The notes under the pieces are model-generated. The model was given only the letters and a program-made list of their open reading frames with translations, ran no database searches and was not told where the DNA came from. A DNA stretch of 64,000 nt from assembly GCF_018977255.1 (NCBI RefSeq), contig NW_024704751.1, positions 16,244,001 to 16,308,000 of the forward strand, read 5' to 3'. How positions within the stretch are numbered: position 1 is the stretch's first letter; the number at the start of each line of letters is the position of its first letter. Shown here in pieces: positions 23,201-63,639 of this stretch. The stretch is from Callorhinchus milii (lineage: Eukaryota). A program made the position numbers and the translations under genes.

Positions 23201-26200
23201 GACTACAAGAACAGCAAGATAATGGAATGACTGGAACTAATATTGGAAACCATTCATCTAAAAGTTCAGAGTGAAATCTTCCCAAAGAACACAGTATCTT
23301 CCCCAAAACTTGCAGCAGGCTATTTCCACTGTGGCACTCTGTAGGTCATTGCTTACCATCTGCAGAGATAGGCGTCTGCACCATATTGCTCTGCTGGCTG
23401 GGGACAGGAGCCCTGGCGCTGCTGATCAGAAGGTCAAACTTTGTGCTGCGGCAGGTGTTGGTGCAAACCTTATCATGCTGATAAAAATCCAACTGACCAG
23501 AATCCATCATCTTCCTGTATGGGAAGCAGTCAGAAACAGTCACTTACACTGAGCCCCAGAAGACTCAACTCACCTCCAGAGAGTACTTTTGGTGACTACC
23601 TTATGCCACCCCCACTCCTTGCCCCACAACTTGCACCCTGATCAACACAATGTCTGGCATAATTAAGAAATAACAAAAGCTATTGAATTCTATTGTATGA
23701 AATTCGACCACAGTAAACTCCGGATAACTCGTCATTCTGAGGGAAAAGGACTCAGTGACAAGATATCCAATGGGACAAGTTAGCCATTGGTCCTCTGAGC
23801 TCAATCACCTCTACCACCAGCTCAGCAATGCTATTGGCTGGCACTCAGTCACACTCCTGGGAACCAGGATCAGCACAGGTCAGCAACACTGTTGGGACAG
23901 GAAGAGGAACAAAAACTGGCAAAATGCAGGGAATATATCTGGATAACACTAACCTTAACATTACACCTCCTATTCGGATTGCTCGTTTCCAGTCTTTGAG
24001 TGTGGATTTCCCCGCAAAGTGAACAAACTGTTTTGGGCTTATAAGATGATCATTAAACTGAAAAGAAAAACAGAGTAAAGAATTCCGTCATAATGGAGAA
24101 TACTGACAAGACTGACTTCACATACAAACATGAAAAAATGTCTTGTGTGTAATTAATGGCTATTCAGTCCCACAGAGTCTGTTCTGCCATTCTATAAGGC
24201 CATGGCTGATCTGTACCTCAACTTCAATTGCTCATCCTTGCCCCATATCCCTTGATACCCGTACCTACAAAAATCTACCTCAGCCTTGAAATTTTGAATG
24301 GATCCAGCATCCACAGCTGGCTATTGCAGTTTTAATTATTATTACGGTTTTAATTGTCATAATTATTACTGGTGATAAACTATCATTGCTGATAATTAGT
24401 ATCTCTCCTGGTAAGTGGCTGTTTGATAACTGGTAAACACCCCAACTTCGTGAAAGCAGTTGAGCCCAAAGCCATTTGCAGTAGCCATTACACCAGCCAG
24501 CAATGCCTCTGAATTTGCCACCTTAGGGATTTAGATATTTGAACAGCAGAATACTTTCAAAGTTGATTTTACTTGTATTTTAGGGACCAGTTCTGAGATG
24601 CAGCATTATTCAGGGTAGTTAATTAGAAGGCTCCCCAAGCTGCCTCTTGGATGCTGCATGTGTTTTATAAGTTTCAGGTATTTGTGTCTTAGCTGGAGCA
24701 AAATTGAATTTTTTTTTCTCCATTCTTAGATTATTAATGAAATATCACTCCTCCATTACAACCCAATTTAATAAAATAGACGTGGACAGTACAGTATTAA
24801 CAGATGGAATAGTTATGCATGGTTCATACCTTCACGCATTTTACATTAATTCCTGGGCAGACAAATTTCTTCCACAGCAGAATGGCTTTGCTTTCCCCAC
24901 AGGTAATAGGATAAGCAATTTCAACCTCCTCATTGTTGATATCTGGAATTAAAACTCAATAGTCGGTTTCTCTTTGCAAAGAAATTAAAGCTTTTGCAAT
25001 GAAGCAGCCTACATTATTTTTTAAAGTTATTTCTTCCTCACTGAATCCCATTACAGCATCAAGCTGTTTCATAAATCACAGCATTCATCATTGTGGCTTA
25101 AACCACCCATACTGACATCCAGCTGTTAATTACCCTATGGGTAAAGAAAAACTTCCTAATATCCATCCTAAATTCACCCTTCCCAACCTGAATCTGAATT
25201 CTTGTCTTGGTGAATTTGGAACTATTGGAACTATAAGCTGGAAGAGTCTGCTGATGCCCACAGACAAAAAATTGAGTGAGGCAAAGTTATTGTCCCCTTT
25301 CCAGACCCAGGCAACAGCGCAGGTTGGTGTCTCCAGCAGAGGAGAAACATACAAAAAAAAGCAGAAAATCAGGTGTAAAGGTAACAGCTAATAGTGTTTT
25401 CAATAGTCACACACATCCAATTTTTATACTTTATAAAATTATTTTGTATAAATACAGAAATACAAGAATCAACTTTAAATGCCGCCCCTTCATTCCCCCG
25501 TTGAAGTTTGGCAGCATTCTGCTTCAACGAGAAGGCTGCTAACTTTGATGGAGTGACTGTCTCGCAGGCGATCTAGTATGTTAAGTGTCAGAAGTGTCAG
25601 AGCTGTACCACAAGGACAAAGGGAGTCGTTGCCCAAAGTGCTGCAACCTTAAGGTCCCTCCAGCTCAGTAACCGTTCCAGCCATCGCTTCTCCTTTTTAA
25701 GCAGTTACCTGCTGGCATCTAGAGTCTGTTGACAGAGCATTATTAGTAAATGATAATAGCTTTAAACCGAGGCACAAGCCTACATCTCCTACGAATTTAG
25801 TTCTCTCCACCACCCTTTGTTGGATCAGTAACTCAGTAAACTTTGATCTCTCACCTTCCCCCTCTGCCATTTTCTGCAAAGTGTGAGTCCCCACAGACAC
25901 CACTGAAGCATTGCAGTTTGATTCTGATCCTTCTTCACACATGCTGTTGGAATAATTTGAAACCAAGGTTAGTGCAAAGGTGACACACAGCAATTTACAG
26001 TTATAAATCTCAATGACGTGTTTCCATATTCAACAATGAATCTTGTATATATATATGTATATTGTACCCTTCATGTGGGATAAAGTATTGGTGCACTTCA
26101 CAGTGGCAGGATTGCCCACTCTTCTTGGTAATCCATTCCAGGTGTTGATTGTCCTCTGTGTAATCAAATACTTCCTGGCGTCCGTCTTAAAATTGCCCCA

Positions 26201-29868: not shown

Positions 29869-31694
29869 CTATATAGGGTGCTCTGGATTCTTAAGACACT
29901 CACTGTGCTGACAACAAGATTTATTACACATTAGAAGGGATTTGGAGGGTTGCTGGCTCACGTGGAGTATAAACACTGGCCGGATTAATTGGGACAAAGT
30001 CCTGTTTCTCTGCAGTATCATTCTGTCTACTTAGAAAATTCTGCACGAATATTAAATGTTAAAACAGCTATTACCCTGTCACCATGGGGGACAGGGAGGT
30101 GCAAGGATCATAACCTAATTTTAAAAGGGTCTTAATGACCCACATGTTGTTTGTGATCTCAGCGGATGCTCTGATCCTCTATCGTTGTGACACTTCAAAA
30201 TAAGGAGCTTCCTTTACCATAGAGATAGAATGCACTGACATCAACAGTGATACACAACCTATTGCTGTAACCATGGCAATTCACACTTCCAACACCAGCT
30301 GCTTTGATGTGAACCATAACCAGGCCAGTCACTTTGCTTACAAGCTTGTTGGTGAGCGCTTTGGTGGGTGGATGAATCGTAACAGCTTTTCATCTTCGAT
30401 GAAATCATCTTAATGTTTCTGTTTGTCAGAAATAAGAGACAACTTGCATTTTGTAAAAACCTCCCTCCCCCATCACCTCGAAATGTCACAAGTAATTACC
30501 ACTGAGTGTGGTGACTGTTTATGTAGGGTGACACAACAGCCACCAGGCCCCCGCACATCCATGAGATGAACGACCAATTAATCTGGAGGATTGCTGCTGT
30601 GGACAACTCTGCTCTCTGTTTTTGTTAAGATTCCAAAATAACTATTTTGGATAAAAGTATTGATTATTTATCTATGCTCTATTTGTAAGCGAGAGAGGGA
30701 ACATCTATACACAGAGAGGTATAATGCCCATATAGATAGTCAATGATGCTATAAATATGGAAACAGAGCTATTGTAGAGATACTGCAATTTCACCCACTA
30801 CGCCCTGGCTCTGAATCCAACCCAGACTGATAGGGTGAGAGTCTCTCCTGTCTGATGGCTGTAGAGGGTCTTGCGTGAGCAGTCTGAGCTGAGTTCTCAG
30901 TGAGCAAAAGGCACACAGCATGAAACTGCCCTGAATTCAGCACTAAATTGACAGTGTCACAGAATGGTTAGTATAAAGAATAGAAAATGTTACACCGGTG
31001 CAATAGGAAGTGCTTCTTTAAGATAGGGAAAGAGGTAGAGAGGGTGTTCCTGAGACTGGCACTGTTTGCCTGGAATGGGGAAGAGTTCCATCTCTCAATG
31101 CTAAATACCTCTCACCTTGATGAAGGCAAAATTCACCAAAAACACCAATGGTGCAATGGGTTCATGTTTTGCCTCTCTCTGTTGCCATTTACGTTGCGAG
31201 AGAAATCTCTCATCTCTCTGCGTCTCTGGTGAATCAGGAGTGGAATGTAACTGGAGCTGACCAACTCTCTGGCTCTTTCTCTCTCTCTCTATCTCTCTCT
31301 CCCTTTCGCTCTGTCTGGACAATATTCACACAGAATCCGACGCAGGGAACAAGTGGAAGGATTGAGAGCAGTGTCAGTGAATTCTCAAGTCTGCTGGGCA
31401 CCTTTGTAGCAAGTCAGTCAGAGGGAGCAGAGCAAGGAATTAAAGAGGCTTCCTGAGCTAACAGCAGCACACTAGTGCACAATTGGCTGCCGTGTTTTGT
31501 CCACAAAATATAGTCAATTCGTTTTACAATATATTCGGTGAAACACTTTGAGACGTCGCAATGACCTGATAAGGCGCTATATTAAATTCAAGGATTATTT
31601 TCACACTAATGGCTTTACCACCACCTGGAAATCACCAGAACCCAGCTGATGGAGTAGGCCTCTATATTGTGTTTGTTTTCTCAGACAAGCAGCG

Positions 31695-34600
31695 ATGACT
31701 GAAAGAAGGCGGTCCTCAAGTGATGAGAGTCTTTATGATATCTTAGAAGTGAATAAGAAAGCCACAGTGGAAGAGATCAAAGCAGCGTACAGGTGAGACA
31801 GCAGCATATAATAATAATAATCCTTGCTTTTGATATAGCGCTTTTCACATCGGGAGGACGTCCCAAAGCGCTTCACAGAACACACTGTAAAGTGAATTGA
31901 CTGTATATTTGTGGGCGAACGCAGCAGCCAATTGCGCACAGCAATGTCCCACAAACAGTCGTAGATTGAAAATGACCAATTTATTATTGTTTTTGGTTTT
32001 TGGAGGGATTATTATTAGGCTCTGTGTGGAGTAAGGAAACTTGCCCAAGGTTTCGCCCTCTGCCTGAAATTGAACTCAGGTCTCTCGCTTGCAAAGCGAG
32101 TGCTCTAACCACTGAGCTACAGGACTCCACCATATATAGGAGGATATCTCATGTCAGTGAGCAATCGTGAATGTGGATTGAGCTCTTCCCTCGTAACGGA
32201 GAGCGGTCGCTCTGAAACTGGTGTTTGGCAAATACATCCAAGGCCTAACATTTCTTCAATGTCTTCAAACGCTACGCCATCTTGTTCAAAATCTCAGACT
32301 ACACAGAATCCTGCAATAATCTTCAGTTCAGTCTGAATTTGGAAGTTGGATTACAAATTAAGACTGAATTTAAGATTTTTCCATAATCCTCCATGAGTAA
32401 GTAAGTAGGAACCTGGTTGTTAGTCGATTGAAGGTTCACTTTCCGAGGGAGACAATCATTCAAAAAAAAATTGGTCACTCAAACCATGGCTGTTTGTGGG
32501 ACACTGTTGTGCGCAATTCACTGCCGTGTTTTGTCCCCCACATACAGTCAATTCACTTTACAATATATTCTGTGAAGCACTTTGAGACATCTCAATAACA
32601 TAATAAGGCGCCATATCAAAATCAAGGATGCAAAATGATATCAAGGGCTGAGACGTGTTTGAGGAATAAGCTATGAGCAATAATTAGATAAGCTGGAGCT
32701 CTTCAGTCTCGAGAGAAGACAACTCAGAGGCGATCATCTAAAGGTAAATAAAATTTTTAATGAGATTGAATAATTAAACCCACATCAATATTTTAGGATA
32801 CAACAAGATAGTAGAACAAGAGGACACAAGTTTAGAGCCGTAAAAAGCAATTTCAGGACACACCCCTGGAAGTTTTTGTGTACTCAGAGGGTAATTAAGC
32901 AATCCAGGACACTACCCCGCGTGAAGGGTGCTATAATAAATGCAAGTTGTTGTTGTTGTTGTTTAATGACTGGAACCCGTCAAGGGTGGTTGAGGCCAGG
33001 ATACTGGGATTCATTTAAAAAGCAGTTTGACCCTGTGATGGGAGGTCGGTAGCGTGGGTGTTCTGGAAGGGTGAGATCAGATGGGCCAAAGGGCCTTCTT
33101 CGTCCGAACCGATCTTGTGGAAATTATTGTTTTTTTGGGAGGTGAAATAATGTTGAGTAACTCTGAGGCTGGCTATTGCTCAGGAAGCTGGCACTGAAGT
33201 ACCACCCGGATAAGAATCGCAATGACCCAGCTGCAGCTGAGATGTTCAAGGAAATAAACAAATCGTACATCATCCTCTCGGACCATCGGAAGAGGAGCAT
33301 CTATGATTCATATGGTTCAGCGGGGCTGCAACTGGCCTCCATGTTAGGGCAAGAGGGAGAGAAAGTGCTATCAACGAAGACGAACTACTGCTTCAAGGTG
33401 AGTTGCCTCTGAGGACATGTTTCTCCTCATTTCCTCTCCCCATCCCCACCCCCACCCCTATTTCTCTCCTGAAACCACTGCCATGTGCTGGGGGGGAGAC
33501 AGTGAAATATTAAAGGTTACAATGGGATCACTGGGTAAACCACGACTTGCAGAATGACAAGACACCATATTCTGTGGGTGCCTCAGTGTCTCACCCGCTC
33601 TTGTGTCTCGCTCTCGAGACAGAGCAAAATACAGGTACTATTTTTAGTGTATCCTGTGAAACTCTGAGAAGACTCTGATCATGTTCTCGGACTTTGGGGG
33701 CATCAATCAGCCCACATCCTGTCCTCACCCCACATCTGCACAGGAATGTCCGCACAGGGCATTGCTGAATCCTACTCAGGAAAGTTGAAACAAGTGACTC
33801 AGCTGAGATCAGTGACTCAGACAGTGGTCCATTAGGGCAGTTACACAATGGGTTGTATATAATCACTAAGTACATTCATAGTTTGGTCAGTGACATGTTA
33901 ATGAGACTCAAAAGCAACAAGCAAGATTTTCCAGAAATAATTAATCTCTATGTTGAGTCAGTTTTAACCCTTGCTGTGATGTCCTGCAGTGTTTAGCCTA
34001 TTTCTGCTGTCTCATCACCTGCTGCTGTTGCTTTCTGTGTTGCTGTTTCTGCTGCGACAATAAGAAGGAATCTGATGTGATTAATGACTTTGACCGCCTT
34101 CCCCTGTACAAAGGTGAGCACCCCAGAGTAACAACAGTGACTGAGTAAGTCTGATATTCATTATACACTAGCATTCCCAGCACAGAGCAAGAGGGCTGGC
34201 TGCTGAAGGCACTGCACTTGGAATGAAACGTTACAACAACTACAACAAAATTACATTTAAAGAGCGCCTTTCGGAAAAATGTCGGGAGAATGTCCCAAAG
34301 CGCTGCTGCACACAAATCCCAACTGACCATCTTTCCTCTGGATATTAAAGATCCTGTGACGTTAGTCTTAAAGAGAAGGGAGGTTTTTCTGTTTGTCTAC
34401 AAAATACAGGTACTATTTTTAGTATATCCTGTGAAACTCTGAGAAGACTCTGATCATGTTCAAACCAAACAAAGTGCTTTACATAATAGGGATAGAGACA
34501 TAGAAAATCAAAACATAGAAACAGAAGAGGGTTATTCGGCCCCTTGTGCCTGTTCCACCATTTTATAAGATCATGGTTGATCTGTACCACAAGTCCAAGG

Positions 34601-42715: not shown

Positions 42716-42908
42716 GGAGAGCAGAGCCTCCTCTCTGCAGACATCGAACAGAACACAAGACCTTTTCTTATCGTCAGACGACTTTGACTAACCTGCTCTA
42801 AAGGAGGGAAAAGGATTGGTTACATCGCGAAAAGCAGTCAATAGAGACCGACCGGAGAGAAGTTGAACAACTCACCAGGATCCCTGTCTGTCCCGTTTAT
42901 TCATTAAC

Positions 42909-45900
42909 ATGGATTTCCAGTCTGAGAGTATAATCCCGGAGGCCAGCACCATGGACACTCTGGAGAAGCAACTCATCTGCCCAATTTGTCTCGAAATGTT
43001 TGAAAAACCGGTGGTGATCCTGCCGTGCCAACACAACCTGTGCCGCAAATGTGCCAATGACATTTTCCAGGTCAGTGCCAGCAACGTTTAGATTTTTTTG
43101 ATTGCAAGAAAATTTCTTCCTGTGAATTCACATTCTAATGACCTTGACATCAATACGGTTGTAAAATGTGAAATGGGAAAATGTGCTCGTTTTCGGATGC
43201 TTGCTGTTGAGTGGTTTGCGGTTGTGACCTTGGTTTTGGGGACTTCTGTCTAGATGTCTAGATGTAGAGGTGGGACTAATGTTGTTCTCTGTCTTGCTCT
43301 CCAGGCTGCCAACTCGTACTGGCAGTCGCGGAGCTCCTCCATATCGGGAGGAAGGTTCCGGTGCCCATCTTGTCGGCACGAGGTCATCCTGGATCGGCAC
43401 GGAGTGTATGGGCTGCAGCGGAATCTTCTGGTAGAAAACATCATCGACATCTACAAAGAGGAGTGCACCAGGTCAGCATCAGCTTGGTTACCATCCCTGT
43501 CCGTTTAGCAATAAGAATAATAACCCTTGCATTTGTTACAGCGCTTTATCACACCATTGAGACAAATCAAATCTCTTCACAGAATATACCGTAAAGCGGA
43601 TTGACTGTATATATCAAGGGAAACACCTTTCACTGTTGTGGGGGGGTGGGGGAGGTGGTGATGGGGGAGGAGGAGATCAGGCCAGATATGGGTTTGTCGC
43701 CTGTCGCTTGATGCATTATCCACACATTCCATTGCAATTTGATCACCGTGAAGGTCTGGCACATGCTTTACATAGACACTGTGCCCTTTTGAACACCCTT
43801 ACTGTAATGGGCACGGGCCCCAAACACAGCCAGGCGGACGGCAATGAGGTTTTCACTTGTGCCAACGCCAGATTAATGTCAGAGAAACTCAGGCTACATT
43901 TGTCACTAATTCCTCCTCAGATGAACACGATCTAACATAGCCCAGGGCAACCAAAAGCCAAGTGATCAACATTGATTTGATAAACAACAACAACAACAAA
44001 TTACACTAGTATAGCGCCTTTCAGTTGGAAAGACGTGAAAGTAGTGAACGTCAAAGAAAATTCAGATATATTTTATCACTCTGCAATTTTTGTTAAGATA
44101 AATATTTGATAGACTTTATACAAAATTTTACACATAATTTACTCCGAGATGCGCTGGAGGCAAATGTCTTCCTTTAAAACCTCACCAAAACAGCTTTTAT
44201 ACAGCGTCAGGGGAGCTGCCCAATGCCTGTTGAGATGTTCTCTAAACAGATTTGATGTGAAAATTATTTTGAAAAGTGTTTTTTTTGGGGGGTATCCTTC
44301 AGGCCCGTGAAGAAGAGGGGAAAGCAGCTGATGTGTGAGAAACACGAGGACGAGAAGATTAACATTTACTGTGTGACCTGCCAGACCCCCACCTGTTCCA
44401 TGTGCAAGGTCTTCGGGGCTCACAAGGATTGCGAGGTGGCCCCTTTGCAGAATGTATTTGAACGACAGAAGGTAAAGATCAGGCGGGCAGTGGGGGTGTG
44501 GGGGAGAGAGGGCAGGGAAGGTGGGTGGGGAGGGAGAGTGGGAGTAGGGAGGGGGTGAAGGGAGGGCTGAAGGAGGTGAGAATAACCTTCCTGCTGAAGC
44601 TGCTGATCTCTGGGCTAATTTTAGCCACTGGGCTGTAGCACGATAACAGCTGTGCTGCTGGCCTGGGCTCCAGTCAACAAAACTGGGGAAAACCATGTGA
44701 ACCATACCATCGCCATCTGCTCCAGTCTCCTGACCATGTGTAACTTCACACACAGGGACATCTGCCCTGAAGTGACAAAATACATTGATATTTATAGTGT
44801 TTACCAGGATAGAGCTGTTGTTAAAAGTCTGATATGAAGAAAATTGCCCTCGTGATTCAGTTGTTAAGATAAGGGTCCCGGCTGGCACTCAATGTCTCGG
44901 CTCGCACATGGGAGGAACAATTTGTGAAAGTTAACGTGTGATCAGCCATGTGACATGCATTTTCTTGCCTCCTGTCGGACAGGTGGAGCTGACCGATTGT
45001 ATCGCCATATTGGTGGCTGGAAACGACAGAGTCCAGTTGGTCATCAGCCAGTTAGAAGAGTCGTGCAAGTCCATCGAGGTAGGAACAACCGGCAGCCAGG
45101 AGAGAGCTGAGCCCAGCTCCCCAAATAGCCGCAGACACTCTCCACCCCCCCACTCCCTTCCCCTACACACATCACAGCTCAACTACACAACTCCTTATTA
45201 GTGGTGTGCACTCGTTCCTGCTTCTCCAGCTCTATTCCTGAACAGTGACACAACGCTGAAAGAAATTCCAGCATTTAGGAATATGCGGCCGCTCTATTTT
45301 TCCTCCTGAAGGTGGGAATGGCTACGGTCTGCATTTGGGGGTGCTCCACATTGAAGGCTTTTCTCCATGTTATTTTTCAGGAGAACAGCAAATACCAGAA
45401 ACAATCGCTTGCTGAACAGTTTGACACCCTCTACGCCATCCTGGAGCAAAAGAGGCAGGACCTGCTGCAAAGCATCACCAAAGAGCAAGAAGCCAAAGTC
45501 GACCATGTAAAGGGTCTGATCAGCCAATACAAGGCACACCTTGAGGGGTCCTCCAAACTGGTGGAAAATGCCATTCAATCCGTGGAGGAAGCAGGAGTGG
45601 CCACTTTCCTGATCGTAAGTCGTGCAAGACACATGCAAGAGCTGTTAGTCAAGTGTAACGTAAGCAACCACAACATATGTGTGTTACAAGAAGTAACACA
45701 CGGTGTGTTATTATACAGAGGACATCCCCGTCATAATGCAGTCACCTGGGTGCAATATTCCAGGACGCTGTGTTATAACGAAGTGGGGAAGCAATGGCCA
45801 ACTTCCTGGTCGCTTCTGACGAAACTTCCTGCATTTATGTCAGCGGTACTTCCTACACAAATCACAACAAGGGGCCACCTGGTTCTGCCTCCAGTGCTCT

Positions 45901-48055
45901 GGGGTTTGGTGCTGGGTGTGGTTTCCGGTGCAGACACCTACAGAGTTACTGATGTCAGGACAGGTCAGACGTGAAAAGCGCTGTATCAAATGCAAGGATT
46001 ATTGTTATTATTATTATTAAACCAGTAGCTGGAATTACAACAGTAGCTTTTGGTTTAACGTATGAAGCACCTTGTACACAACCGCTACGAAATCTCAAAA
46101 CATTCCCCTTTATACCCCAGGATCTTACTGCAGATTGCAAGGATATAAAGTGGCCAGTTACAGTCATTAATCCTGCAGTCAGGGAATCGATGCCAAGTAA
46201 CTGAGCTGCCACTCGTATCCCTGCGTATTGCACCGTGTTCACTGCCAGCCCGAGATTAAATCACTTCTTGGTGATGCATTGTCTTTCATGGTCATAAATC
46301 AACGCTTTAATCAAATTGTCCTTTTCTTTCACAGAATTCAAAGATGCTGATCAAAAAGTGAGTATCAACAGCAATTGGGTATCAATAAAGGGTTCAGACT
46401 GAATTGTGACTGTGGATTCCACCCCCCCCCCCACCCCCAGCATTATCAGCCCCTTGTTATGGTTTCAAGTGGGGGGGTGGCGGGGTGGCAGCCAGTTTGT
46501 TCAGATTGTGCAGTTTATTAACAAAAGTGGTGCAACAAGGAGATGAACAAGTTCCTGACACTGAAAGTGGTTCGGTGTTTAGGAATTGTATGGGGCAGAG
46601 GAGGGTCACTGCCTGAAACTCCCCCAACAGCTGGAGTTTAATGAATGAACTGCCTGCAGTCAACAACAACAACAAATTACACTTGTATAGCGGCTTTCAC
46701 GTCGAGAGGACGTCCCAAGGCGCTGGGAGATGGGACAGAGAGTGTGAGGGACAGAGAGTGTTAGAGATATGAAGTGTGAGGGACAGAGAGTGTGGGGACA
46801 GAGAGTGTGGGGACAGAGAGTGTGGGGACGGAGAGTGTGAGGGACAGAGAGTGTTAGAGATATGGAGTGTGAGGGACCAAGATGCCAACGCTTAGACAGT
46901 AAAAAGGGCTCTTCGCTGCCAGCAACGCAGGTGGTGGATCTGAGGGTTTATACATAAGCTGACCTGAAACACTTTCTTCACCTCTTTATTCAGGATGATG
47001 GAGGCATCTAAAGCTTCTCACATACAAAGAACGGAGGTGGGCTTTGAGAACATGGAGGAGTTCACAGTTAGTGTGGAGCAGGTAGAGGAGGTGCTGCAAA
47101 ATCTTCAGTTTGGATCAGGTATGTAGAGCGCACAGCCTGGAGCCTGGGTTTCAACTCAGTGACTCACAGAGATTGGATGTGTCCTCAGCCCACAGTGTAA
47201 AACTCTCCATTCAGTACACGTGGAGTTCGCTCAGTGTGACTAATTCAGGGATGGGAAGGTTAGCTTGCCCACAGTGGGAGACGATGATAATAAACCTTAT
47301 CATTTTAACCCTGATCTCACATCTCATCCAAAGGACGATATCTGTGACAATGCAGCTTCCTCTACACAGTCTCCCCCAGCCCCAAAGCCGCTCGCTAACA
47401 TCAGGAGGACGTCCCAAGGGGCTGGATAGTCAGGAATCTGCACCCAAGCTGGTGGTTGGGATTAGGAGGGGTGGAGGGCGGGGAGGGTAGGGGTGGGTGA
47501 TTAGTTGGTAGGAGGGTGCTAGAAGGCATAGAATATACTATAAAGTGAATTGACTATATTTTGTGGGCAAAAATAAGTACTCCTAAAGCCAGCTTAGGGA
47601 CACAGGATGAAAAAGCACATTAAATATTCCAGTAGCAAAAGTGAGTAACAGTTCTGAACATTTCAACTTTCAGATTATGATGATGAAGATGAAGAGTTGG
47701 AAGAAGAGATAAAGGAAGAGGCTGAAGAGGAGGAAATTCAAACTGATGGTGAGAGAGAGACCTATACAAATATATGTTCACAATGTATACAAAATATACA
47801 TTCACCCAGCACTACACACATGGATATATATGATATGTACACAGTATATTATACCTTCACCCACAAAATACAGTCAGTTCACTTTACAATACATTCTGCC
47901 AAGACGTCTCAACTTTGAAACATCTCAACAATGTGATAATGAGCTATATCAAATGCAAGGATTATTATTATACATACCCCCAACAGCGCACACACAGACT
48001 GACTCAGCCTAGTTACCTTGTTCTTCTCACAATGCCGCCTGCAGGCCAGCAATAA
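42909..48055 (+). CDS. TRIM63: E3 ubiquitin ligase TRIM63/MuRF1 (353 aa, 9 exons)
   Basis: Exons 42909-43070, 43305-43471, 44303-44471, 44983-45078, 45381-45614, 46335-46357, 46994-47118, 47674-47748 and 48045-48055. RING ([25 protein letters not shown]), MFC, B-box2, coiled coil and an acidic tail ending GQQ* are present. The short C-terminus and the EXTL1 neighbour favour TRIM63 over TRIM54/55. Confidence 0.93.
46731..46878. repeat. Minisatellite (GGGACAGAGAGTGTGR, ~16 bp) embedded in an L2 3' remnant
   Basis: Direct reading. Confidence 0.85.
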
Positions 48056-48594
48056 GATTGAAGTGACAGGAGAACCCAGATGAAGACTTGGTGACCACTA
48101 GAGACAAAGCACGTCTGGTTTTCCATTTGGATCAGCTTCCCTGGAGGTCCCGGACGAGGTCATGAATGATGCTGTATTTTGATGTGTTGTTAGTTGATAA
48201 AAAACACTTTAAAAAAAAATCAATTTTTTTTTATATGGTGCAAAATGGATCATTTTGTACTTTTTCTACACTATTTTTGTATATAATGCAAAGAAGTGAA
48301 TATTGATTGTACTTCTGTAAAAAAAAAATCAATGTGCATTTTAGGAGCCAAATGAGATCAAGTTATCCTTTGCTGTAGTTTACGATGTTTGATAAGACCT
48401 CTGTAGTGTTATTTAGCTCGTGAACAAAGGGAATTTGTTCAGCAGCACTGAACCTTACAAACCCAGCAAGTTAGTGGAGTAAGTCAGCGATGAGATCTAC
48501 AGATTTTATAATGAGTCACAGATTGTATGTATCTTTAGACTTCACATTGGTATTTTGTACAGACTCTTGTATGTGGCTGCTATTATTTCACACA

Positions 48595-52227: not shown

Positions 52228-52523
52228 AATAATAATAATAATAATAATAATAATCCTTGCATTTGATATAGCGCTTTTCACGTCGGGAGGACGTCCCAAA
52301 GCGCTTCACAGAACACACTGTAAAGTGAATTGACTGTATATTTGTGGGCGAACGCGGCAGCCAATGGCGCACAGCAATGTCCCACAAACAGTCTTAGATT
52401 GAAAATGACCAATTTATTATTGTTTTTGTTTTGGAGGGATTATTATTAGGCTCTGTGTGGAGTAAGGAAACTTGCCCAAGGTTTCGCCCTCTGCCTGGAA
52501 TTGAACTCGGGTCTCTCGCTTGC
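52228..52523 (-). mobile_element. Young SINE (head truncated)
   Basis: Same family as the other young copies. Confidence 0.9.
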
Positions 52524-52682
52524 ATCTTCTTGTTGTTGTTGTTCATTGTGTATGTGAGCGGCGCTGTATTAAATGAAATTGTTGTGCAATCTGGAGAATT
52601 AAGTCACCCCCCCCACTCTGAGAAACAGCCCTCCCTTCGATAACGGTGTCCATGGATCTTTTTCGAGATCCGCCAGAAACAG

Positions 52683-54000
52683 ACAGAATTTTTAATGTTT
52701 AATGTTTCACCTGAAGGATTGCACCTCTGACAATGCGGTGCTCTTCTCTTCCCCCCTCCTGTCACTGTGCTGGAATGTCGGCCTGGACAATGATCCTGAT
52801 GTGGGGCTTGAACCCACCACCACCTCATGAGTAGGAGGTGAGAGCGCGAGTGGCTGAGCCCAGGCTGACAGTGTTGTGTTTTGCAGGTTTCTGTGGCCTG
52901 TGATGGCCTCAATGCCGGGGGCTGGGGCCAGGCTGCCTGGGCTGCTCTCCCAGCCTCCACCCCCAGGGCACCCCTTGCAGCCCCTGCCCCCACCCCCACA
53001 GGGGGCCATGCGAGAGATCACCTGCGTTACGCTCTGCAATGTTGGCCAGGAGACCGTCCAGGATATTGTCTCCCGCACCATGGACGTCTTCCACATGCTT
53101 CGTGCTACTCAGGTGAGCCCCAGCCCCTTGCCGGCCCACCCCAAATGAGCCCTGCCCTCACACTGACAATTCCCTCCATTTCCCCCCTACAACACCCCCA
53201 CCTCCCCACCACACCCTTCATCTGGATGATTGGCTCTGAGCCTGTGAAGTGTGTGGGAAATAATTCTCATTAGAGAGAGCAGAAAATAACTTGTAATTAT
53301 ACGGCACCTTGTAAGTTACGTCAAAAGATCTCAAAGCATTTCATGGGTAATTGCTTCCAAGATCCAAGGGAACGAGATCTACCCACAGCTCTGGGGCTCG
53401 GGGCCATGGCGGGGCAGGGGCTGTAGTGGGGGGCTAGGGCGATGGCAGGGGAGGGGTTGCTGGAGAGGGCTGCAGTGCGGGAGGGGCTGCTGTTCCGGCT
53501 TCATCGCCTCCTGTTTCCCAGCAGCTGCCGAACGGTGTGACGCACAACCACGTGGTTTACCAGGAACGCTACAACAAGTTGCAGGAGCACCTGCGTCAGC
53601 TCACGCTCCTCTTCAAGAAACTGCGACTGCTGTACGACCGCTGCGGAGAGACATGTGCTGTCTCCGACGTGCCACCAACAGAGGTACGTATTGTACTGCT
53701 CAGTGATCTCCGGCCTCCATGTACCCTGCCCGGCCCGCCTCACCATCGGCAGTCAGGCCTTCTGCCTTTCTGGCCCCAACCTTTGGAACTCCATCCAACA
53801 TGCCTCCCTCCCTTACCTCCTACAAGGCAAGTCTCAAGAAGAACCTCTTCGACCACGCCTTCGCTCACCCCACAGAATTTTTAATGTTTAATGTTTCACC
53901 TGAAGGATTGCACCTCTGACAATGCGGTGCTCTTCTCTTCCCCCCTCCTGTCACTGTGCTGGAATGTCGGCCTGGACAATGATCCTGATGTGGGGCTTGA
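52683..54000 (+). repeat. Perfect 129-bp direct repeat (52683-52811 and 53872-54000)
   Basis: Base-by-base comparison found no mismatch. Confidence 0.93.
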
Positions 54001-55036
54001 CATCCCTCCTCATCCCAACCCTCAGTTTGAGTCCAAACCCTTGACTGTCCTGTGCCTTGGGACGTCCTCCTGATGCAAAAGATGCTTTGCTATTTTTATT
54101 TGTTTTTTGTTGTTGCATCAAACCTGTTGGGGGGTGGCGGGGAGCAGCCTATTTATCTAAATTCTCAATCTGATCCAAAATAGTTTTATTCACTGAAAAC
54201 TGGCAGTTGTCTGGTGCCAGGCTTGGTGCTAAGCTTCGAAGAACACTTCTCTCACACCCGTTTATTTCTGTGCAGTTAATCCCCTTCGTGGGAGAGGAGC
54301 CGGGGAGGCCGGAGAGGCAGAGTGCTGGTGGTTTGGGTAGTAAGGAATGCCAGGAGGTTCTGGGGGTGAGTAATAAAAATAATAATCCTTGCATTTGATA
54401 AAGCGCCTTATCACGTTTTCAAAACGTCTCAAAGTGCTTCACAGAATATATTGTAAAATTAAGTGACCGTATTTTGTCGGTGAAACGCGGCAGCCAATTG
54501 CGCACAGCAGTGTCCCACAAACAGTCATGGATTGAAGTGACCAATTTATTATTATTCATTATTATTAGCAGAGCAGAAAACGTTTCCGATCTTATTTCTA
54601 ACCAGTTAAGATTCTCCTTGTTTTGGACCCCTTCACTTAGAGGGAAGACTCCTCCACTAATCGATGTCTTTGTTGTATCAAACATCTCAATCAGATCAGA
54701 GAGTGAACGCATTCCATTCTGACAATCTATATCTGGAATTTTCATGGAATTCTCAGTTTGGTTTGGATACTTTTAAACATGGTGATGGGTTTCTGCATGT
54801 GTCAGACACCCACCCAGCTGACCCCCACCCCCCAAAAAAAAAAAATTCTCCAGCTTCGCCTCTTCGTGAGGGGCGAGGATCAGGGTGGTACCTGTACAGT
54901 GGAGCACTCACTCCCAAATCGCTATCCTCTGCTCCCCCAGAAGCTGCGTCAAAAGAACCAGGAATTGAAGCACATCACAGACCAACTGCGGAACCTGATC
55001 TGGGACATTAACTCTATGCTGGCAATGCGGAACTGA
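52903..55036 (+). CDS. Mediator subunit MED30-like protein (~184 aa, 4 coding exons)
   Basis: Exons 52903-53112 (...REITCVTLCNVGQETVQDIVSRTMDVFHMLRATQ), 53525-53683 (LPNGVTHN...; CAGCAG tandem acceptor), 54276-54365 and 54941-55036 (KLRQKNQELKHITDQLRNLIWDINSMLAMRN*). MED30 signature termini and exon layout. Confidence 0.92.
54372..54568 (-). mobile_element. SINE 3' fragment inserted directly after MED30-like coding exon 3
   Basis: Tail AATAATAATCCTTGCATTTGATA... and body on the minus strand. Confidence 0.85.
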
Positions 55037-56618
55037 GACTGCTCGCAGCCAAACACAGCCCGCGCTCACCCATCACCGCCCTGACACAGCCTGGGGACAA
55101 ACACAGGCGAGGGCTGGGTCAGGCAGGTACTTTCTCACACTCTGTATGATGGGATTTTTATATTTAGTAAAAAAAAAAGGAAAAAATTTAACAAAAACAT
55201 TTTTTTTTACCTGGGAAATTAATCTTAACATTTAAATAGTTTAATACTGTATTTGATTTATTTGTTTAGATGCCAGTTTCATTGATTAACTTACTTCTGT
55301 GTGTGTGTGTGTCTTAGTCCAGGCTTCTTGTACCAAGTCGATAGTGTATGGATTAATATTAATCCTTGTATTTGATACAGCGCCTTATCACGTTGTTGAG
55401 ATGTCTCAAAGCGTTTCACAGGATATACTGTAAAGTGGATTGATTGTGTATTTTGTGGGCGAAACAGATTCTGAGAAAAAAGCCAGATTGAGTTCAGCGT
55501 AAGGTTCTGACATTGTTTATCGGTGGTGGGGGGAAGGGGAAGGATTATTTGTCTTAATCCCAGTCAATGATTTGCTGCTGGTTTATTTCTAAAGTCACCT
55601 GTAAATGGTGTTGTTGCCAGTAACTCCGTCCCCAGGCCAGAAATTCCACCCAGTTAAGACCATTTAATATAGTGCGACATTTTAAAATTCTGCTTTGATT
55701 TGGTGCTTTTTCTGCTATTTATGCACAATTTTAATTCGCCTCCATATGGAGGGGAATAGTCAGTGTTCTGAACCCCCCCGCCCCCACCGCCCGTCCCTAG
55801 CTGACAGGGTTGCAGGTGTGAGAGTGGGCAGGGTTTGGCTGTGATGCCTCTGTGGGGAGAGGGATGTTTTTTCTAAGTCTAGAAAACCCTGACTGCGCTG
55901 CGCATTTCACATGCCCTCCCACAGGTCCCCATTCTATTCTAGGTATGTCACTGTCTGGCTGTGTTGAGAGAGAGGAACTGATGGAATGTTCTGGAACTTG
56001 TTACAGCTGTCGACTGGTTCTGAACTGTAATATTTTCTTAAAATAATAAAATAAAAATCCGAGAAGATATGTTGCGACTCAATGAGTGTGTGTGGGTCTG
56101 TCCACCTTGATGTGTTTTGCGCTGGATGGAGTGTTCATTTGGCACAATTCAAAATTCACTGGATTAAAAGTGTCATTTAATAAATCATCCTGTGCACAGC
56201 ATCCTACCTGAATGTGTATTTGAAGAAAATTCTTTTTTTTTAAACTTCAAAAACATATTGATATTGAACCAACTAGCAGCATTGACGTGTAAATCGCTCC
56301 CTCATAATGAGGACATCCCTGTTTTGTCTCAGCGAGCCGTCAGTTAACAAACACCAGGAGTGACCGACCTACACATCTGCAACACGAGAGAAGAGACTGA
56401 CGCAGTGTCTCAGGGAGTGACTCACATTCAGCACCAGTATTTGATTTTCACTGAATACGATTGGGGTTCAGATCAACCCTGACTGAATAAGTCTACAAAC
56501 GGAACAGAGGCAGTTTGGCGGTTACAGTGCGTACATATAGCGCTGGCCCATTGCGCAGAGTCTGTCTGAAGAGCTGTTTCAGTCAGTGGAGGGCAGTTGG
56601 TCGGTCAATCGCTGGGTG

Positions 56619-59600
56619 TCACGAGCGCTCAAGGTCACGGTATTTTTTTCTAAGCACAGAAACTTGATCCTTGAAGAGGACAGGGTCAAGGCGGAGCTGG
56701 GAGTGGACGAGGGGCATGTAGCCAAACCAGCTGGCAAATGTGTTAATGCAGTTCTGTCGCTGAGCAAAGTGAACTGGATCAGTCCAGCGTGTGCTCTTGG
56801 AGCCCTGGGTGAGAGAAACAGAAAGGTCAGAGTTAGGGAGCTCAAACCTGGGTCACATGGATGGAGAAAGCGGCTGCAATGCCAGGCACTGACCAACTGG
56901 GGGAGGCAGCTTAAACATGAAAATAAAATTGCATTTGTAATAATAATAATAATCCTTGCATTTGATATAGCGCTTTTCACGTCGGGAGGACGTCCCAAAG
57001 CGCTTCACAGAACACACTGTAGAGTGAATTGACTGTATATTTGTGGGCGAACGCGGCAGCCAATTGCGCACAGCAATGTCCCACAAACAGTCGTAGATTG
57101 AAAATGACCAATTTATTATTGTTTTGGTTTTGGAGGATTATTATTAGGCTCTGTGTGGAGTAAGGAAACTTGCCCAAGGTTTCGCCCTCTGCCTGGAATT
57201 GAACTCAGGTACACCATCTACAACAGCAAAACATCTCAAAATGGTCACAGAAATTGCCAACAAATGCAGTTGCAATTTCCTGCAAACAGCAATGACCTAA
57301 ATGACTGATTTATGTGTGACACACACCTGGCGCTGACTGACAGAGGCGTGAGGAGTAAGGAAACTTGCCTAAGGTTTCGCCCTGTCCAGGAATCAAACCT
57401 GGGTCATCTTGCTAGCGGAGGCAAGTGCTCTAAACAATTCGCTGCAGATAAAATACTGCAGGAACTGGAGCGACTTTGAGATGCTGCCCCCGTCACTGCG
57501 TTCAAAGGGTGCTGAAACCACACACACAGCGTCACAGACCTGGACAGCACTGCACACCTGCTGCATCAGCGGCTCCTTGTGTTGTTTCTTCTGCGTGACT
57601 TTGACTGGAGGAAGTTTGGTGACAGCGGAAACCAGGAAGTTCATCAGGATGTCCTCGCAGTTGGAGGTACTGTCCACAAGATCGAGCAGGTGTGTGGGCA
57701 GGTAGTGTGTGAAGAGGTGATGGTAATATCTGCACAGCAACACATGCAGCAATCAGAGACTCGCTGGACACCTAGAGCAGCCTTTTGGCAACCAGTTTGA
57801 CATATTTTCCCCCACAAGAGGCTCCCCGTGTCCGCAGAGGTTGGGGGTATCAGATTACCCCGTGTGTGTCACACACACACACGCGCGCAGCATTGCTCAT
57901 TACCTGTGATAAAACGCTGCCCCTGTCAGCACCATGGAAAACTCATTGGTCCACTTTGATGTGTATCCCCACAAGCGTTTGCTGCTGTCCCAGAAGTGGC
58001 TGCGTGCCGGGAAACCCACGATCCGCGTCGGAAAACTGCACCACACGATGAACGCGAAATCCACCTGCAGTGAGAAACCGCACGGCGTCAGCGGGGAATC
58101 GGCTGAGCCAGAGGCTGCCCGCAGCGAGAAACGCGCTCTGGTTCAGTGCTGTATCCCCCTACCCTCCGCCCCCTCTTCATTCCAACCCTCCTCTTTGACT
58201 TCGTCTTCGGTCATCTACCCTACCCACTCCCACCCTCTATGCCCTCCAGTCATCTTAATCCCAACCCTCAACTTGGGTGCCAACCCTTAACTGTCCAACA
58301 CCCTGGTAAATCCTTCTTCTGACGTGAAAGGCACAATATAAATGTATTTTTGTTGTGGTTGTATTGGTGTCGTTATTCCAATGGTGCTGCTTTGCGCTGT
58401 TGCTGCACACTTTCCTGACCTAAGCGACCGCTCACCTCGCTGGTGGAGAGCACGATGTCCTCGTCCAGGCTCAGCACGGCCTCGCTGCTGATGTTGTGGA
58501 ACGGGAGGAAGCGACTGCTCATGACCTGAGGAAACAGCAGGGCAGAGGTAGCCACACCCTCGCCAGCCGCATTTACACAAACAATCAGAGCTTAGTTGGG
58601 TTTAGTAGATATTTCATTGGACAAAACTTTTTTTTTTATACAGCCTCTTATCACGCCCATTGCTTCCCAGGTAAACACTTGACAGGTGCAGTGATCAGGT
58701 TTGTCACAGCTCGTTGCACTAGCAACATCCCACAGACAGCCACGAGGTGAGTGACTGATGAACTTAGGGGATACCGGGAGGGAGAAACTATCTTCTTTTC
58801 TGATAGTGTTTTGCGATCTTTACCGTTCCCCCTAGAGAGAGGCCATCCTGTTTAATGTGGGATGTGACACTGAGCCTCTTATGTAAGTGACAACTCTGAA
58901 GTGATGGCAAGCGCAGACAAACACGTCCCTTACCTTGCGATCTGCCTGTACGACTATCAGAGGCATCCTGGTGGGTGGCCATGTGCCCCTGCTGGCTAAT
59001 GGCTTGTCACAGTTCCATAGGATTATTATCTGGAGGCGGAATAATGAGCATTATATTTCAGGCACATTTAACCTTCAAGCTGAATTCTTAAGAGTCAACA
59101 GAAGTTTATAACACAGGAGGAGACCATTCAGTCTGTCATGTGCATTCTGGTGCTCGCTCCCCCACTGGAGCTCTCTACTCTAATCCCATTCCCTGCTCTC
59201 TCTCCATCGTGTCTGTACTGGTGCTCGCTCCCCCACTGGAGCTCTCTGCTTCATCTCTACCATTTCCCTCTCCTAACCTCCCCCACATTAGAAGACAAAG
59301 AAAAACTGAAGGTAAGGAGGAAGTGAAGATCACACTGTTTACCTGACCACAGTACTTGGATTTCGCCAACGCTTTGACTAACTTGATGATGGTCTGAGAC
59401 TGAGAGACCAGGGGAGAGACGGAGTGAATTAGAGCACTGAACTCTCTCGGGGGAGTTACACCTGCAAAAACAAAGGAGGCTCATTAGCCAAACCCCATGG
59501 TGAGAACAGCAGGAACGTCATGGGATTTGCAGGGGTACTATAGGATTTTCTGGGCTAGAGGGGGGGCACTTACCCTGCTCCAGGTAATAGAAGGGAAAGT

Positions 59601-60998
59601 CCGCGGTGTGAGTGGAATACTGAGGAAGCACAAACAGTCCTCCCGGCATCTGGTTCCACATGATCTTATTTCGTGACACGTGTGTAAATATCCGATCTTT
59701 AATAATCTGCAAAACACAGTGAGAGTGTGAGCCTGAATTGACATCGCCGAGATTCCTCTCTTCACTGAATGACTGACTAACAGAGAGGATCAGGCCCCTG
59801 GTTGCTTCCTCTGTTGGTCTTTTCATGATCTGTGCTGTAGAATAAAAATACACTGACAATTTAAGTGCTCCGAGACTCTACCCCGGGTATAGGGCGCTAT
59901 ATTCATGTAAGCTGTTCTTGTTGTTGTAAATGGCTTTAGCCAGTAACCAAAGTTTGTCGTTTGTTCAGAACTAAGGGCCTGTAGTTTGGGCCGAGTCGTC
60001 CCTCACCTCCAGCGTGGTCGACACAATCTTTTCTACAGAGGAAAAATAGGCATCCCATAAGAACTGAGTGTGCTGCCGGAATGCCAGAATCTTGTCATTG
60101 GGAATGGCCCGGATTGTGGACGGAATCTGTGAGGAGAAAGAGGAGAAGCTTTAGTCATACACATTATCCAGAGAGCTTCCAAACGGAAAGAAAGAACTCA
60201 CATCCTATAGCACTTAAATCACAGTGAAACAACTCGTAAAGCTTCACGGGTAGTTACTGCCAAGTGTAGTGACTGTTTATGTAGGCAAGGAATAAAGGAG
60301 GGCAGCAATGAAAGTTGAGGCTGGTTGTTGAGCAAACCCCCCCCCCACCCCCAGAGCTCGCTGGAGCACTAACCTGGAGCAGGAGCCGCTCGTCACCCAC
60401 AACCGCAGCTTTGCCCCAGTCAATGATGTCCGCGAAGGGCAGTTCCCAGCCGTTGCTGAGCAGTACAGGGATACACGCAGCCTGAGCCCAGGCCAAGAGA
60501 GCAGAATTAGCCAGGTATCAAGGGGTTAACACTGTACATCGCAAATCACCACCACCACCAGCAACAACACGTTACATTTACACAGCGCCTTTCACGTCCG
60601 GAGGATGTCCCAAGGTGCTGGACAGTCAAGGATTTTATGTTCTGGGGGTTGGAATCAGGATGGGTGAAGGGCAAGGAGGATGGGGGTAGGAGGGTGACCA
60701 AACGTCGTGTCGAAGAGACGAGTCTTGAAGGAGGCGCAAATGAGGGGGTGAGGTGAAGGGACCGTGTGACGGAGCTCCATAGGTGGGAGCAAACTTATTT
60801 TAGCGAAGTTTAACACACATCTGAGCAGGAACTCCTGACAGAAACCAGACAAGAGACCGCAGTGACCAGACAGTGTAATGACAATTTATAAACAAACGTA
60901 ATACCTGAAGAGCCTCCAGAAAGCGGAAGGAGCCCAGACGTCGCCCTCTGGGGATGAGGCAGAAGGTGGAGTTGTGCATCAATTCCTGATAATCAAAC
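56619..60998 (-). CDS. EXTL1: Exostosin glycosyltransferase, EXT1-like and syntenically EXTL1; exons 2-11 (exon 1 beyond the window)
   Basis: Exons 60998-60905, 60481-60374, 60126-60007, 59706-59574, 59461-59343, 59029-58934, 58525-58436 (LSLDED, DXD motif), 58064-57904, 57729-57558 and 56804-56619 ([24 protein letters not shown]). Sizes 94/108/120/133/119/96/90/161/172/186 follow the EXT1/EXTL1 pattern as recalled. The symbol rests on synteny with TRIM63 and the small introns; family call ~0.97, orthology less certain. Confidence 0.8.
56938..57210 (-). mobile_element. Young SINE (head truncated) in the last EXTL1 intron
   Basis: Same family as the other young copies. Confidence 0.9.
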
Positions 60999-63639
60999 CT
61001 ACAGGAGAGAAATCCATTTACTGCAGAGAGAGAGAGAAAGCAAAAAAGCAAGCAAAAAAGGAAGGAAAGGAGCCTCTTCTAAATATAAAATACACATCCC
61101 TCACAGTTAATAAAGCACTCTGGGACGATACGCAGTGTGAGTGGCGCTATATAAATGCAAGTTGTTGTTGGAATATCAAACGCAATGATTATTAATGATT
61201 ATTAATATTAGAAATACTGGGCACAAGGTAAGTGTCACTGCTGTTATCATGGTGGGGGTGGGTGGGGGGCTGTACTGTTTACACAACATACATCATTCTA
61301 GTTTCAGAGCCGGACAAACTGTACAGTGAAGCAGCTGCACTCTGCTCCTTCCTTCCATTGTCCAAATTGTTCTCTGTTGCTTCCATGTCAGGAGTTAAAC
61401 CCAATGTGAACAATATGAGAGAGCAGAGGGAGGGAGGGAATACGCCACTGGGAGTGTAGACAACAACAAAATGCATTTATACTGCGTCACTCACACTGGG
61501 TAGAACACTTTTAACACAGCGGTGAACGTTTGCAGAAAGTACTGTCTGGAAAGTAAAACCTGCCTCAGAAGCAGTTGGACTGGATTTATTAAACAGGAAT
61601 TTTTCTCAGCGGATAGGAAGTGGTACTTTCCTCCCCTTCCCATGGCCCGACCTCCTGACAATCTGAGCCTCAAGGTCATTGTCATAAAATCTCAGAACAT
61701 CGCTCAGTGTTTTGGGAAAATTCTTAAATTCAATCGGTGCCTTAACCTGACTCAGTGTCGTGAGCTGCTCTGGTGGCAGAGTTGAAGGGTCCGTGTCTGA
61801 CCCCTTGCTCAGCAGCAGCGACACAGTCCAGTCAGTGCAGAGCTTGATGCCCCTTTGATACAACAGCTCTCGGCTCCTCGGGAGCCAATAAATCTGATGG
61901 ATGATGTTAATTCTATGTGAAACACTGACACTGCACTGTGCTGTCAGCTGCTTCAGTACACTCTGAGCCAGATTCTGTGATAAACCGTCTGCCTCGCAGC
62001 CTCATGCTGTCACTGCGCAATGGCTCTCAGCCTTGTTGTCTCAGTGTGAACGTTTGGCTCAATATCTGTATACTCGGCCACCCCAGGAGGGACCTGTGGC
62101 TGAGCCCCACACACCTGAGGTCCCATCGTCCCATCAGACAGTAAACATTCGTTATGCAGTTGGTTACCCTCTTAACCCTGATCCAAAGAGGCACAAAATT
62201 TCATCCAGATTTTGCCTGTGACACTATTTTGTCTTATAATTTAAGAATGTGTAGAAACATGCAATCAGTGACACAGACACAAATCCTGTTTCCCACCTTC
62301 CCCAGTGCCACATACCAGCTCAGCGCTCACACACACTGCACCGCTCTGCCATCCCCCACTCATGGCTTTACTCCCGTTCTTTAATCACAGAGTTGCTTCA
62401 TCTCACTCCTCTGTGAACGCTCGGACAAGCACCATGATATTCACAGGAAACAAGATATTGTGTGACATTTTGCAATAAACATCTCCTCATTGTACTTCAC
62501 ACATGAGTAGGTGTCAGCTCGGCTCAGTCAGTAACGCTCTAATTCTCAGCTCTGGACCAGAAGGCGGGTCCAAAGACATCTTAACATCTGGTCTCAGTCA
62601 CCTGAGACTGAGGTCTCAGACCTTTAGTTTCCCAACAATCATCGATGACCGCCCGGGACACCCCAGCTACCAGGCTGTACCCCCACCTCAGTGCTGATGA
62701 GTCAAATAAACATAGCCCTGGATGCGCTGCGGTAAGCATCTAATCAGAACCAGAGGGTACACGCTGCTCACCCATTGCGTCTTTCAATTTGTTATATTTG
62801 TGGATGTAACAGGTTGAATTGAACATTTTCCCCAAAGATTACACTGACCTTATTTTATTTATAGTGTGCACTGATTGTCTGGATTAATGAGTTTTGAAAT
62901 GCATTGCAGATTGTGCCATTTCCAGGTACCTACTAAAGTCGCTCATTAACTGTAAGGTAGGCTGCTGCCTCTGAGATTTGACTGTGACTGGAAAGAAAGA
63001 TCAGGAAAGACAGGCTGCTGGATGCTGTGTTAATGTTCAGTGGATGGTCCCGTTGGCTAGTGCTGGAGCTGGGATAGGGTGAGAGGCCAATGCTCTCCAT
63101 CCAAGGACCAATTTCCCTAATTAGAATACTGAGGCCCGAAATTCTTTGCCTCAAAACCATGGTCTTAGAGGTTAAATTGTACAGAATTCTGGAAAATTCT
63201 TACATTCAGCCTTAATTCTGTGTTTTTAAATTGACCTTATATTTTGTTTGACCCACAAAATATGGTGTCAATTCACGTCACAGTATATTCTCAGCGCTTT
63301 GGGACGTCCTCTCAACATGAAAGGCGCTCTATACATGTAATTTTGTTGTTGTTGTTCTCAGAAGCACTTTGAGAAATCTTGAAGACGTGATAAGGTGCTA
63401 TATCAAATGCAAGGATTATTAGTAGTAGTAAATTGAAGCTTGCTCCTCCATGACATCGAATAAAAAAAAATCAATTCTTTATTTGTCTCAACTTTTTCTC
63501 ATCTGTTTTGTGATGTTTTCTCCTGACGTTTGGAGAGGGGTTTCTGTCCGAGAGGAGGAGAGGGAGTTAAACTGGAAATACCTTCATTCTGTGTGTATAG
63601 GCACGTATGGCTTCATTTTTGAGAATTTCAAGTCCTGAC

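Follow-up and report, generated by a model that had tools for sequence, protein, structure and literature searches.

A second, divergent MED30 gene in Callorhinchus milii, probably an ohnologue with counterparts across cartilaginous and ray-finned fishes

Introduction

Variation of the vertebrate Mediator complex is usually discussed for the kinase module only, and the accessible text of two reviews names just CDK19, MED12L and MED13L as vertebrate Mediator paralogues (PMC3852498, PMC12985170). A MED30-like gene in the stretch of Callorhinchus milii DNA analysed here (64,000 nucleotides of contig NW_024704751.1, hereafter the window) raises the question of whether it is the only MED30 of this species, a duplicate confined to its lineage, or an older paralogue whose product could still serve in Mediator. 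In the accessible part of the survey of Bourbon (2008), the three fish examined were the only metazoans with two Med30 paralogues, and a single Med30 was given for each Ciona species (PMC2475620).

The accessible part of a cryo-EM study of mouse Mediator describes MED27 to MED30 as each having a two-helix coiled coil and a third helix (PMC7921410). The coiled coils of MED28 and MED30 are packed together with MED27/MED29 into a six-helix bundle; a four-helix bundle, stabilised by hydrophobic contacts, joins the C-terminal helices of MED28 and MED30 to MED11 and MED22 (PMC7921410). MED30 itself is placed there in the upper Tail, bound to the Head, while a 2026 review, in its accessible text, places it as tethered to the Head (PMC12985170). 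The term "head subunit" in the preliminary description of this locus was therefore loose. According to the accessible text of PMC8432849, a change of mouse MED30 I44 leads to cardiomyopathy, and MED30 is needed for core stability in the mouse heart.

The MED30-like gene is intact and spliced

The coding sequence occupies four exons on the plus strand. Exon 1 (52903..53112, 70 aa) encodes a low-confidence Pro-rich tail followed by helix 1, exon 2 (53525..53683, 53 aa) the LPNG loop and helix 2, exon 3 (54276..54365, 30 aa) a divergent linker and the start of helix 3, with a 3' end of ancestral length, and exon 4 (54941..55036, 31 aa and the stop codon) helix 3. The introns follow the GT..AG rule, all exons are in phase 0, the 184-aa frame contains neither stop nor frameshift, and GC3 is 0.73. 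That the open reading frame is complete, as described earlier, was borne out: the spliced product is identical to the C. milii RefSeq protein "MED30-like" (NP_001279156.1, P0056), and a single contig spans the four exons, with the three introns removed, in two of four sequencing runs (X11 and X6, from different studies, which are RNA runs only by our guess). No four-exon contig was obtained from runs X7 and X9, which says nothing about absence. Just one coding difference was found among the run contigs, at a third codon position. A processed pseudogene was ruled out by the presence of introns.

A tandem acceptor 3 nt downstream in exon 4 (54944) gives a 183-aa isoform, XP_042194293.1 (P0001); the one-residue-shorter form at this acceptor pair (54941-54944) was also seen in six teleost second copies. 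The likely 3' UTR extends over 55037..56077 on the plus strand, with an AATAAA at 56045 and ends of (strandless) contigs at 56047-56077. On the 5' side, there may be a further, non-coding exon, given a splice acceptor at 52887 and the eight unaligned letters with which the X6 contig begins. The sequence at 50001-50500, upstream of exon 1, is richer in CpG. An identical stretch of approximately 125 bases occurs twice, upstream of exon 1 (52686-52812) and in intron 2 (53875-53999), and is likely a repeat copy or a recent local duplication.

C. milii also has a canonical MED30

Canonical C. milii MED30 is XP_007901414.1 (P0480), located on a 125.6-Mb contig; MED30-like is on a 22.4-Mb contig. Over the core, defined as MED30-like residues 37-184, the MED30-like protein matches fox MED30 at 84/147 residues (57%) and XP_007901414.1 at 85/148 (57%), compared with 123/153 (80%) between the canonical C. 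milii protein and fox. MED30-like, with the lower identity to fox and without the three-residue extension of canonical proteins, is not the canonical orthologue; P0480 is. With two MED30 genes in C. milii, simple orthology can be ruled out. The preliminary description was thus right to call the gene a second, divergent MED30, more diverged than a typical orthologue, and the sole-copy case that it had named against its own reading is excluded by XP_007901414.1. The MED30-like core is 84% identical to that of its Heptranchias orthologue, and in the helices chimaera and shark share 85-91% of residues.

Family membership and predicted structure

Three of the four MED30-like exons separately passed the curated cut-off (28.1 bits) of the Pfam Med30 family (PF11315), with scores of 37.6, 55.7 and 40.7 bits and E values of 3.6e-9, 9.8e-15 and 4.2e-10, respectively; exon 3 alone gave no match to this family. 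By the four Med30 signature motifs of Bourbon (SSM1-4) the protein belongs to the family, matching at 20/21, 8/8, 6/6 and 20/22, compared with 21/21, 8/8, 6/6 and 20/22 in the canonical C. milii protein. It further retains 33 of 35 hydrophobic helix columns (defined from six canonical proteins) and the residue equivalent to mouse I44, which is invariant in 18/18 rows.

AlphaFold predicted three helices, at residues 41-69, 79-113 and 144-183, in agreement with the MED30 architecture in the accessible description of the mouse complex (PMC7921410). The monomer model has a mean pLDDT of 63.8 and a pTM of 0.43. A Foldseek search with it returned six significant matches, all of them Mediator chains with 50-58% identity, but with TM scores of 0.35-0.39 and an rmsd of approximately 16 Å; the predicted monomer does not reproduce the in-complex shape. 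MED30-like shares with canonical vertebrate MED30 (TRAP25; PF11315) the family, the four motifs, a predicted three-helix layout and the I44-equivalent residue, while it differs in having a core of only 57% identity, a linker of 31-43% identity, no three-residue gain at the exon 3/4 junction and, in C. milii, a location on a different contig.

Second copies form a clade older than the split of cartilaginous and bony fishes

Comparison of 334 MED30 proteins gave a clean split into 187 canonical proteins (class A) and 147 of the second-copy class (class B). Both classes were present in 18 chondrichthyan and 8 ray-finned species, which were paired by hand, and the ray-finned species include bichir, sturgeon, paddlefish, gar and bowfin. 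The phylogeny that had been suggested as a check was inferred from 55 rows (quick mixture), 29 rows (LG+G4) and 19 rows (mixture); the smaller trees and tests used 29, 29 and 19/16 of the 55 rows, and N-terminal tails were trimmed. Class B was recovered as one clade in every case (SH-aLRT 100 for 55 rows, 100/100 for 29 rows, and 100/99 for 19 rows with the mixture), comprising second copies of sharks, rays, bichir, sturgeon, gar, bowfin and teleosts. MED30-like groups there with zebrafish AAH97178, apart from canonical MED30, and by accession match this zebrafish protein (AAH97178 / NP_001028926) is the Med30#2 of Bourbon. At six diagnostic columns, 10 second copies agree on a residue that none of 14 canonical proteins and 5 outgroups has; five columns are fixed likewise for the canonical class, and none joins chondrichthyan A and B.

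A duplication restricted to chondrichthyans was rejected by the AU test (p=0.0006), as were both ways of splitting the second copies (p=0.003 each). Together with the class B clade, these tests place the MED30 duplication before the chondrichthyan-osteichthyan split. The idea that MED30-like is the sole MED30 (an orthologue or a case of reciprocal retention), a duplicate of chimaeras only, or a gene in decay can draw only on its low identity to mammalian MED30 and is hardly credible: the sole-copy and chimaera-specific forms are refuted by XP_007901414.1 and by the AU result, orthologues occur across sharks, rays and ray-finned fishes, and decay is contradicted by an intact frame and spliced contigs. 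The preliminary description had also tied a possible alternative Mediator to "this lineage", a restriction that did not hold, because the second copy is common to cartilaginous and ray-finned fishes and two Med30 genes were reported for three teleosts in 2008 (PMC2475620, as far as its accessible text goes). The teleost-specific genome duplication was likewise rejected as the origin, since both copies occur in sharks, bichir, sturgeon, gar and bowfin.

Some features of the trees call for caution. Raw identity of MED30-like to ray-finned second copies (55-61% over the core) is no higher than to canonical proteins (57-59%), because ray-finned class B has a long branch of its own. Rooted trees place class B inside bony-fish canonical MED30 (support 85-87) rather than as sister to all canonical proteins, a position that carries a long-branch warning; canonical monophyly was not recovered in these rooted trees and was not rejected by the AU test (p=0.31). 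Classes A and B with hagfish were separated from the outgroups with support of 99/97 for 29 rows but of 57/82 in the small set.

The stem branch of class B is 0.5-0.9 substitutions per site, compared with short canonical branches. One could read this as a protein that left Mediator or took up an unrelated job, the more so as it carries fixed changes at positions otherwise conserved out to hagfish and as ray-finned members kept changing (stem 0.44-0.57). We regard such a departure as very unlikely, given that the signature motifs and hydrophobic helix positions were retained and that the helices differ so little between chimaera and shark.

The tree alone does not fix whether the duplication belongs to the first (1R) or the second (2R) genome doubling. 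An origin of MED30-like in 1R or in a segmental duplication, with the same function, could be argued from hagfish, as its MED30 is closer to the canonical class than to the second (63% vs 51%) and as its grouping with either class, or outside both, was not rejected by the AU test (p=0.37, 0.22). Against this, one tree places hagfish outside A and B, although weakly (81/82), and the genomic placement of the copies, described below, also weighs on the side of 2R.

The 147 class B proteins include no named lobe-finned protein, and coelacanth was found in neither class among the best 120 of 275 and the best 120 of 589 matches. All 35 second-copy-like proteins without a species assignment were nearest to teleost or sturgeon references. 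In the accessible table of Bourbon, human, mouse, chicken and Xenopus have a single Med30 apiece (PMC2475620). From these comparisons, the second MED30 was likely lost in the lobe-finned line.

The N-terminus and exon 3

Two features had been singled out as odd in the preliminary description. The first, a Pro-rich N-terminal extension, is present but not special. There are 43 residues (28% Pro) before the first conserved motif in MED30-like, 13 more than the 30 residues (17% Pro) of canonical C. milii MED30; the same stretch measures 43-50 aa in second copies, and 39 aa both in hagfish and in one teleost canonical copy. The pLDDT of the MED30-like tail is below 50, and it is best described, on the model, as an unremarkable low-confidence tail. 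With hagfish and teleost canonical tails almost as long and with low pLDDT, the tail was rejected as a special feature.

The second feature, a shortened and rewritten exon 3, is indeed divergent, with identity of 11/30 to the canonical C. milii copy and 20/30 to the Heptranchias second copy. The exon is approximately 7 residues shorter than the matching stretch of the canonical copy, a boundary inferred from the alignment. For three of these residues, the supposed shortening is ancestral, so that the polarity had in part been read the wrong way. The spacing at the 3' end of exon 3 was scored by a sequence pattern, which 241 of 515 proteins did not match. Of 115 scorable second copies, 108 have a spacing of 7 residues and the other 7, which have the alternative-acceptor form, one of 6; it is also 7 in 22 of 24 scorable others (hagfish, outgroups and one second-copy fragment), the two exceptions being canonical fragments. 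Canonical MED30, on the other hand, has a spacing of 10 in 123 of 135 scorable proteins and of 7 in 11, these 11 being short isoforms of sharks, rays and paddlefish. As second copies and outgroups have the shorter spacing, it is canonical MED30 that gained three residues where exons 3 and 4 meet, a shift of the splice donor being the likely cause, while exon 3 of MED30-like keeps the older state at its 3' end. The gain lends additional support to the canonical class as a clade. Canonical isoforms of 175 aa in sharks, rays, sturgeon and paddlefish lack exactly the three gained residues, as if the ancestral donor were still used.

A genomic neighbourhood that fits a proposed 2R ohnologue

The window carries, in order, YTHDF2, a GMEB gene, a DNAJC5-like gene, a MuRF-type TRIM gene, MED30-like and an EXT gene. 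The large exon of YTHDF2 (11600..13255, minus strand) was assigned with 326 bits vs 303 for YTHDF1/3 over the same 147 residues. A GMEB-family gene, seen in part and with a SAND domain, follows (20290..24087, minus strand), and then a DNAJC5-like J-domain gene (31690..34100, plus strand); together with the YTHDF2 exon, these served as synteny markers. The MuRF-type TRIM gene (42867..48100, plus strand) has RING, B-box and coiled-coil regions, and its best PDB match is TRIM63 (85.7 bits) by a thin margin over TRIM54 (82.3). The ends of the last two genes are approximate. The visible 3' part of an EXT1-subfamily gene lies on the minus strand (56151..61020), with its stop at 56621-56619 and contig ends at 56151-56159. 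Compared with human proteins it scored 85 bits for EXT1, 47 for EXTL3 and 38 for EXT2, EXTL1 being absent from the PDB matches; we infer that it belongs to the ext1c/EXTL1 side. With MED30-like on the plus strand, the tail-to-tail arrangement described earlier was confirmed, and human MED30 is presumably convergent with an EXT1-type gene in the same way. The facing 3' ends of the two genes are only approximately 75-100 bases apart (56045-56181).

In human, YTHDF2, GMEB1, TRIM63, SLC30A2 and EXTL1 lie on 1p36-35, with SLC30A2 adjoining EXTL1, and YTHDF3, DNAJC5B, TRIM55, SLC30A8, MED30 and EXT1 lie on 8q. Between the TRIM gene and MED30-like (48100-52880), 28 long and 75 short ORFs gave no relevant Pfam match for SLC30A. 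The TRIM-(SLC30A)-MED30-EXT block is therefore not fully conserved, and the SLC30A2-like gene missing beside C. milii MED30-like is possibly a reciprocal loss. Human DNAJC5B presumably lies by TRIM55 and DNAJC5G by TRIM54. The DNAJC5-like gene of the window is divergent and just upstream of the TRIM63-like gene; it may be another ohnologue lost in humans.

Other genomes were also informative. Human MED30 is given at 8q23-24 in the accessible text of PMC8432849. In the accessible part of PMC7662092, a salmonid med30 adjoins ext1c near prdm1b/znf683, and we infer that this is the second-copy paralogue. Of 17 chondrichthyans with contig data, 16 have the canonical copy on the longer of the two contigs (the exception is Scyliorhinus), although these 17 are related rather than independent and some entries are common to two species. 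In elephant shark, 2R pairs typically comprise one large and one micro-chromosome (PMC8302630). Taken together, the neighbours and the placement on small vs large contigs make a 2R ohnologue the best reading of MED30-like. The earlier proposal of an ohnologue is likely right, and the neighbours YTHDF2 and TRIM63-like are of the 1p36 type. The rival origin in 1R or by segmental duplication is correspondingly improbable, because the large/small pairing fits 2R pairs and because several neighbours belong to families that presumably have paralogues on human 8q, which argues against a single-gene event.

In 12 teleosts, both paralogues were found on contigs of the same reported size; sharks, sturgeon, gar and bowfin have them on separate contigs. 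The locus tags of the two paralogues in Dallia are DPEC_G00199900 and DPEC_G00199670, and the accessible part of Bourbon (2008) gives one Tetraodon scaffold for parts of both Med30 copies (PMC2475620). It may be that the two paralogous MED30 blocks came to lie near each other in the ancestor of teleosts. A tandem origin, as the teleost same-contig pattern might suggest, was rejected, since all non-teleosts examined have the copies on separate contigs.

A possible role in Mediator

We consider it probable that MED30-like is an ohnologue from the jawed-vertebrate genome doubling and that its protein takes the upper-Tail slot of canonical MED30. In this scenario, the whole TRIM-(SLC30A)-MED30-EXT block would have been duplicated, and tetrapods would later have lost the second MED30 copy. 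Retention of the four signature motifs and of nearly all hydrophobic helix positions suggests that the protein is likely able to fill the normal MED30 slot and assembles into Mediator; judged from sequence, it probably enters this single slot as an alternative to canonical MED30. In the six-helix bundle with MED27/MED29, the partner of helices 1-2 would then be MED28, and the four-helix bundle would be made up of helix 3 with MED28, MED11 and MED22, as in mouse MED30. A fish cell that expresses both genes would contain two kinds of Mediator, distinguished at the MED30 slot chiefly by the linker and by some fixed surface residues, and an effect through dosage or tissue partition would be more likely than a new biochemical job.

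The further idea that Mediator cores of two distinct functions occur in cartilaginous and ray-finned fishes, through exchange of the upper-Tail anchor MED30 for a paralogue retained from the origin of jawed vertebrates onwards, and that tetrapods lost this paralogue, is offered tentatively, as it is rather doubtful at present. If it were true, zebrafish would allow a direct test, with a natural variant of a non-kinase structural subunit. In any case, chimaeras, sharks, rays and ray-finned fishes have retained a second MED30, which offers a natural experiment with a structural subunit.

Relation to known paralogues

Part of this was known already: the gene is in RefSeq, and the two-copy state has been printed for teleosts. 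The teleost Med30#2 belongs to the same clade as C. milii MED30-like and has the same diagnostic residues and exon-3 length. The neighbourhoods also correspond, the salmonid gene adjoining ext1c and the C. milii gene an EXT1-subfamily gene; the cores of chimaera and ray-finned second copies are only 55-61% identical. In its accessible text, Bourbon (2008) covered Med30#2 in three teleosts only and gave neither date nor origin, whereas chimaera, sharks and rays are included here, which makes the clade older than teleosts. No printed source was found for the date before teleosts, for the reading as an ohnologue or for the polarity of exon 3; these points are useful but unsurprising. No paper dating the MED30 duplication or covering sharks was found in a search that fell short of most subscription journals. 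MED30 is absent from the one supplement seen of a 2026 ohnologue database paper (PMC13450315), whose web database may list the pair already.

Like MED12L, MED13L and CDK19, MED30-like is a vertebrate Mediator duplicate that might permit alternative assemblies (PMC3852498, accessible part). Those three, however, belong to the dissociable kinase module and persist in mammals, whereas MED30-like would be a structural upper-Tail subunit, of which no lobe-finned member was found among the matches listed.

In practice, the name "med30" in fishes covers both of these old paralogues, and knockouts in zebrafish may be affected by redundancy. Canonical MED30 of Narcine has at least 10 annotated isoforms of 141-235 aa (P0155, P0229, P0233, P0288 and P0489-P0494), and the same 178-aa canonical protein of this ray appears under two distant accessions, perhaps as a recent duplicate.
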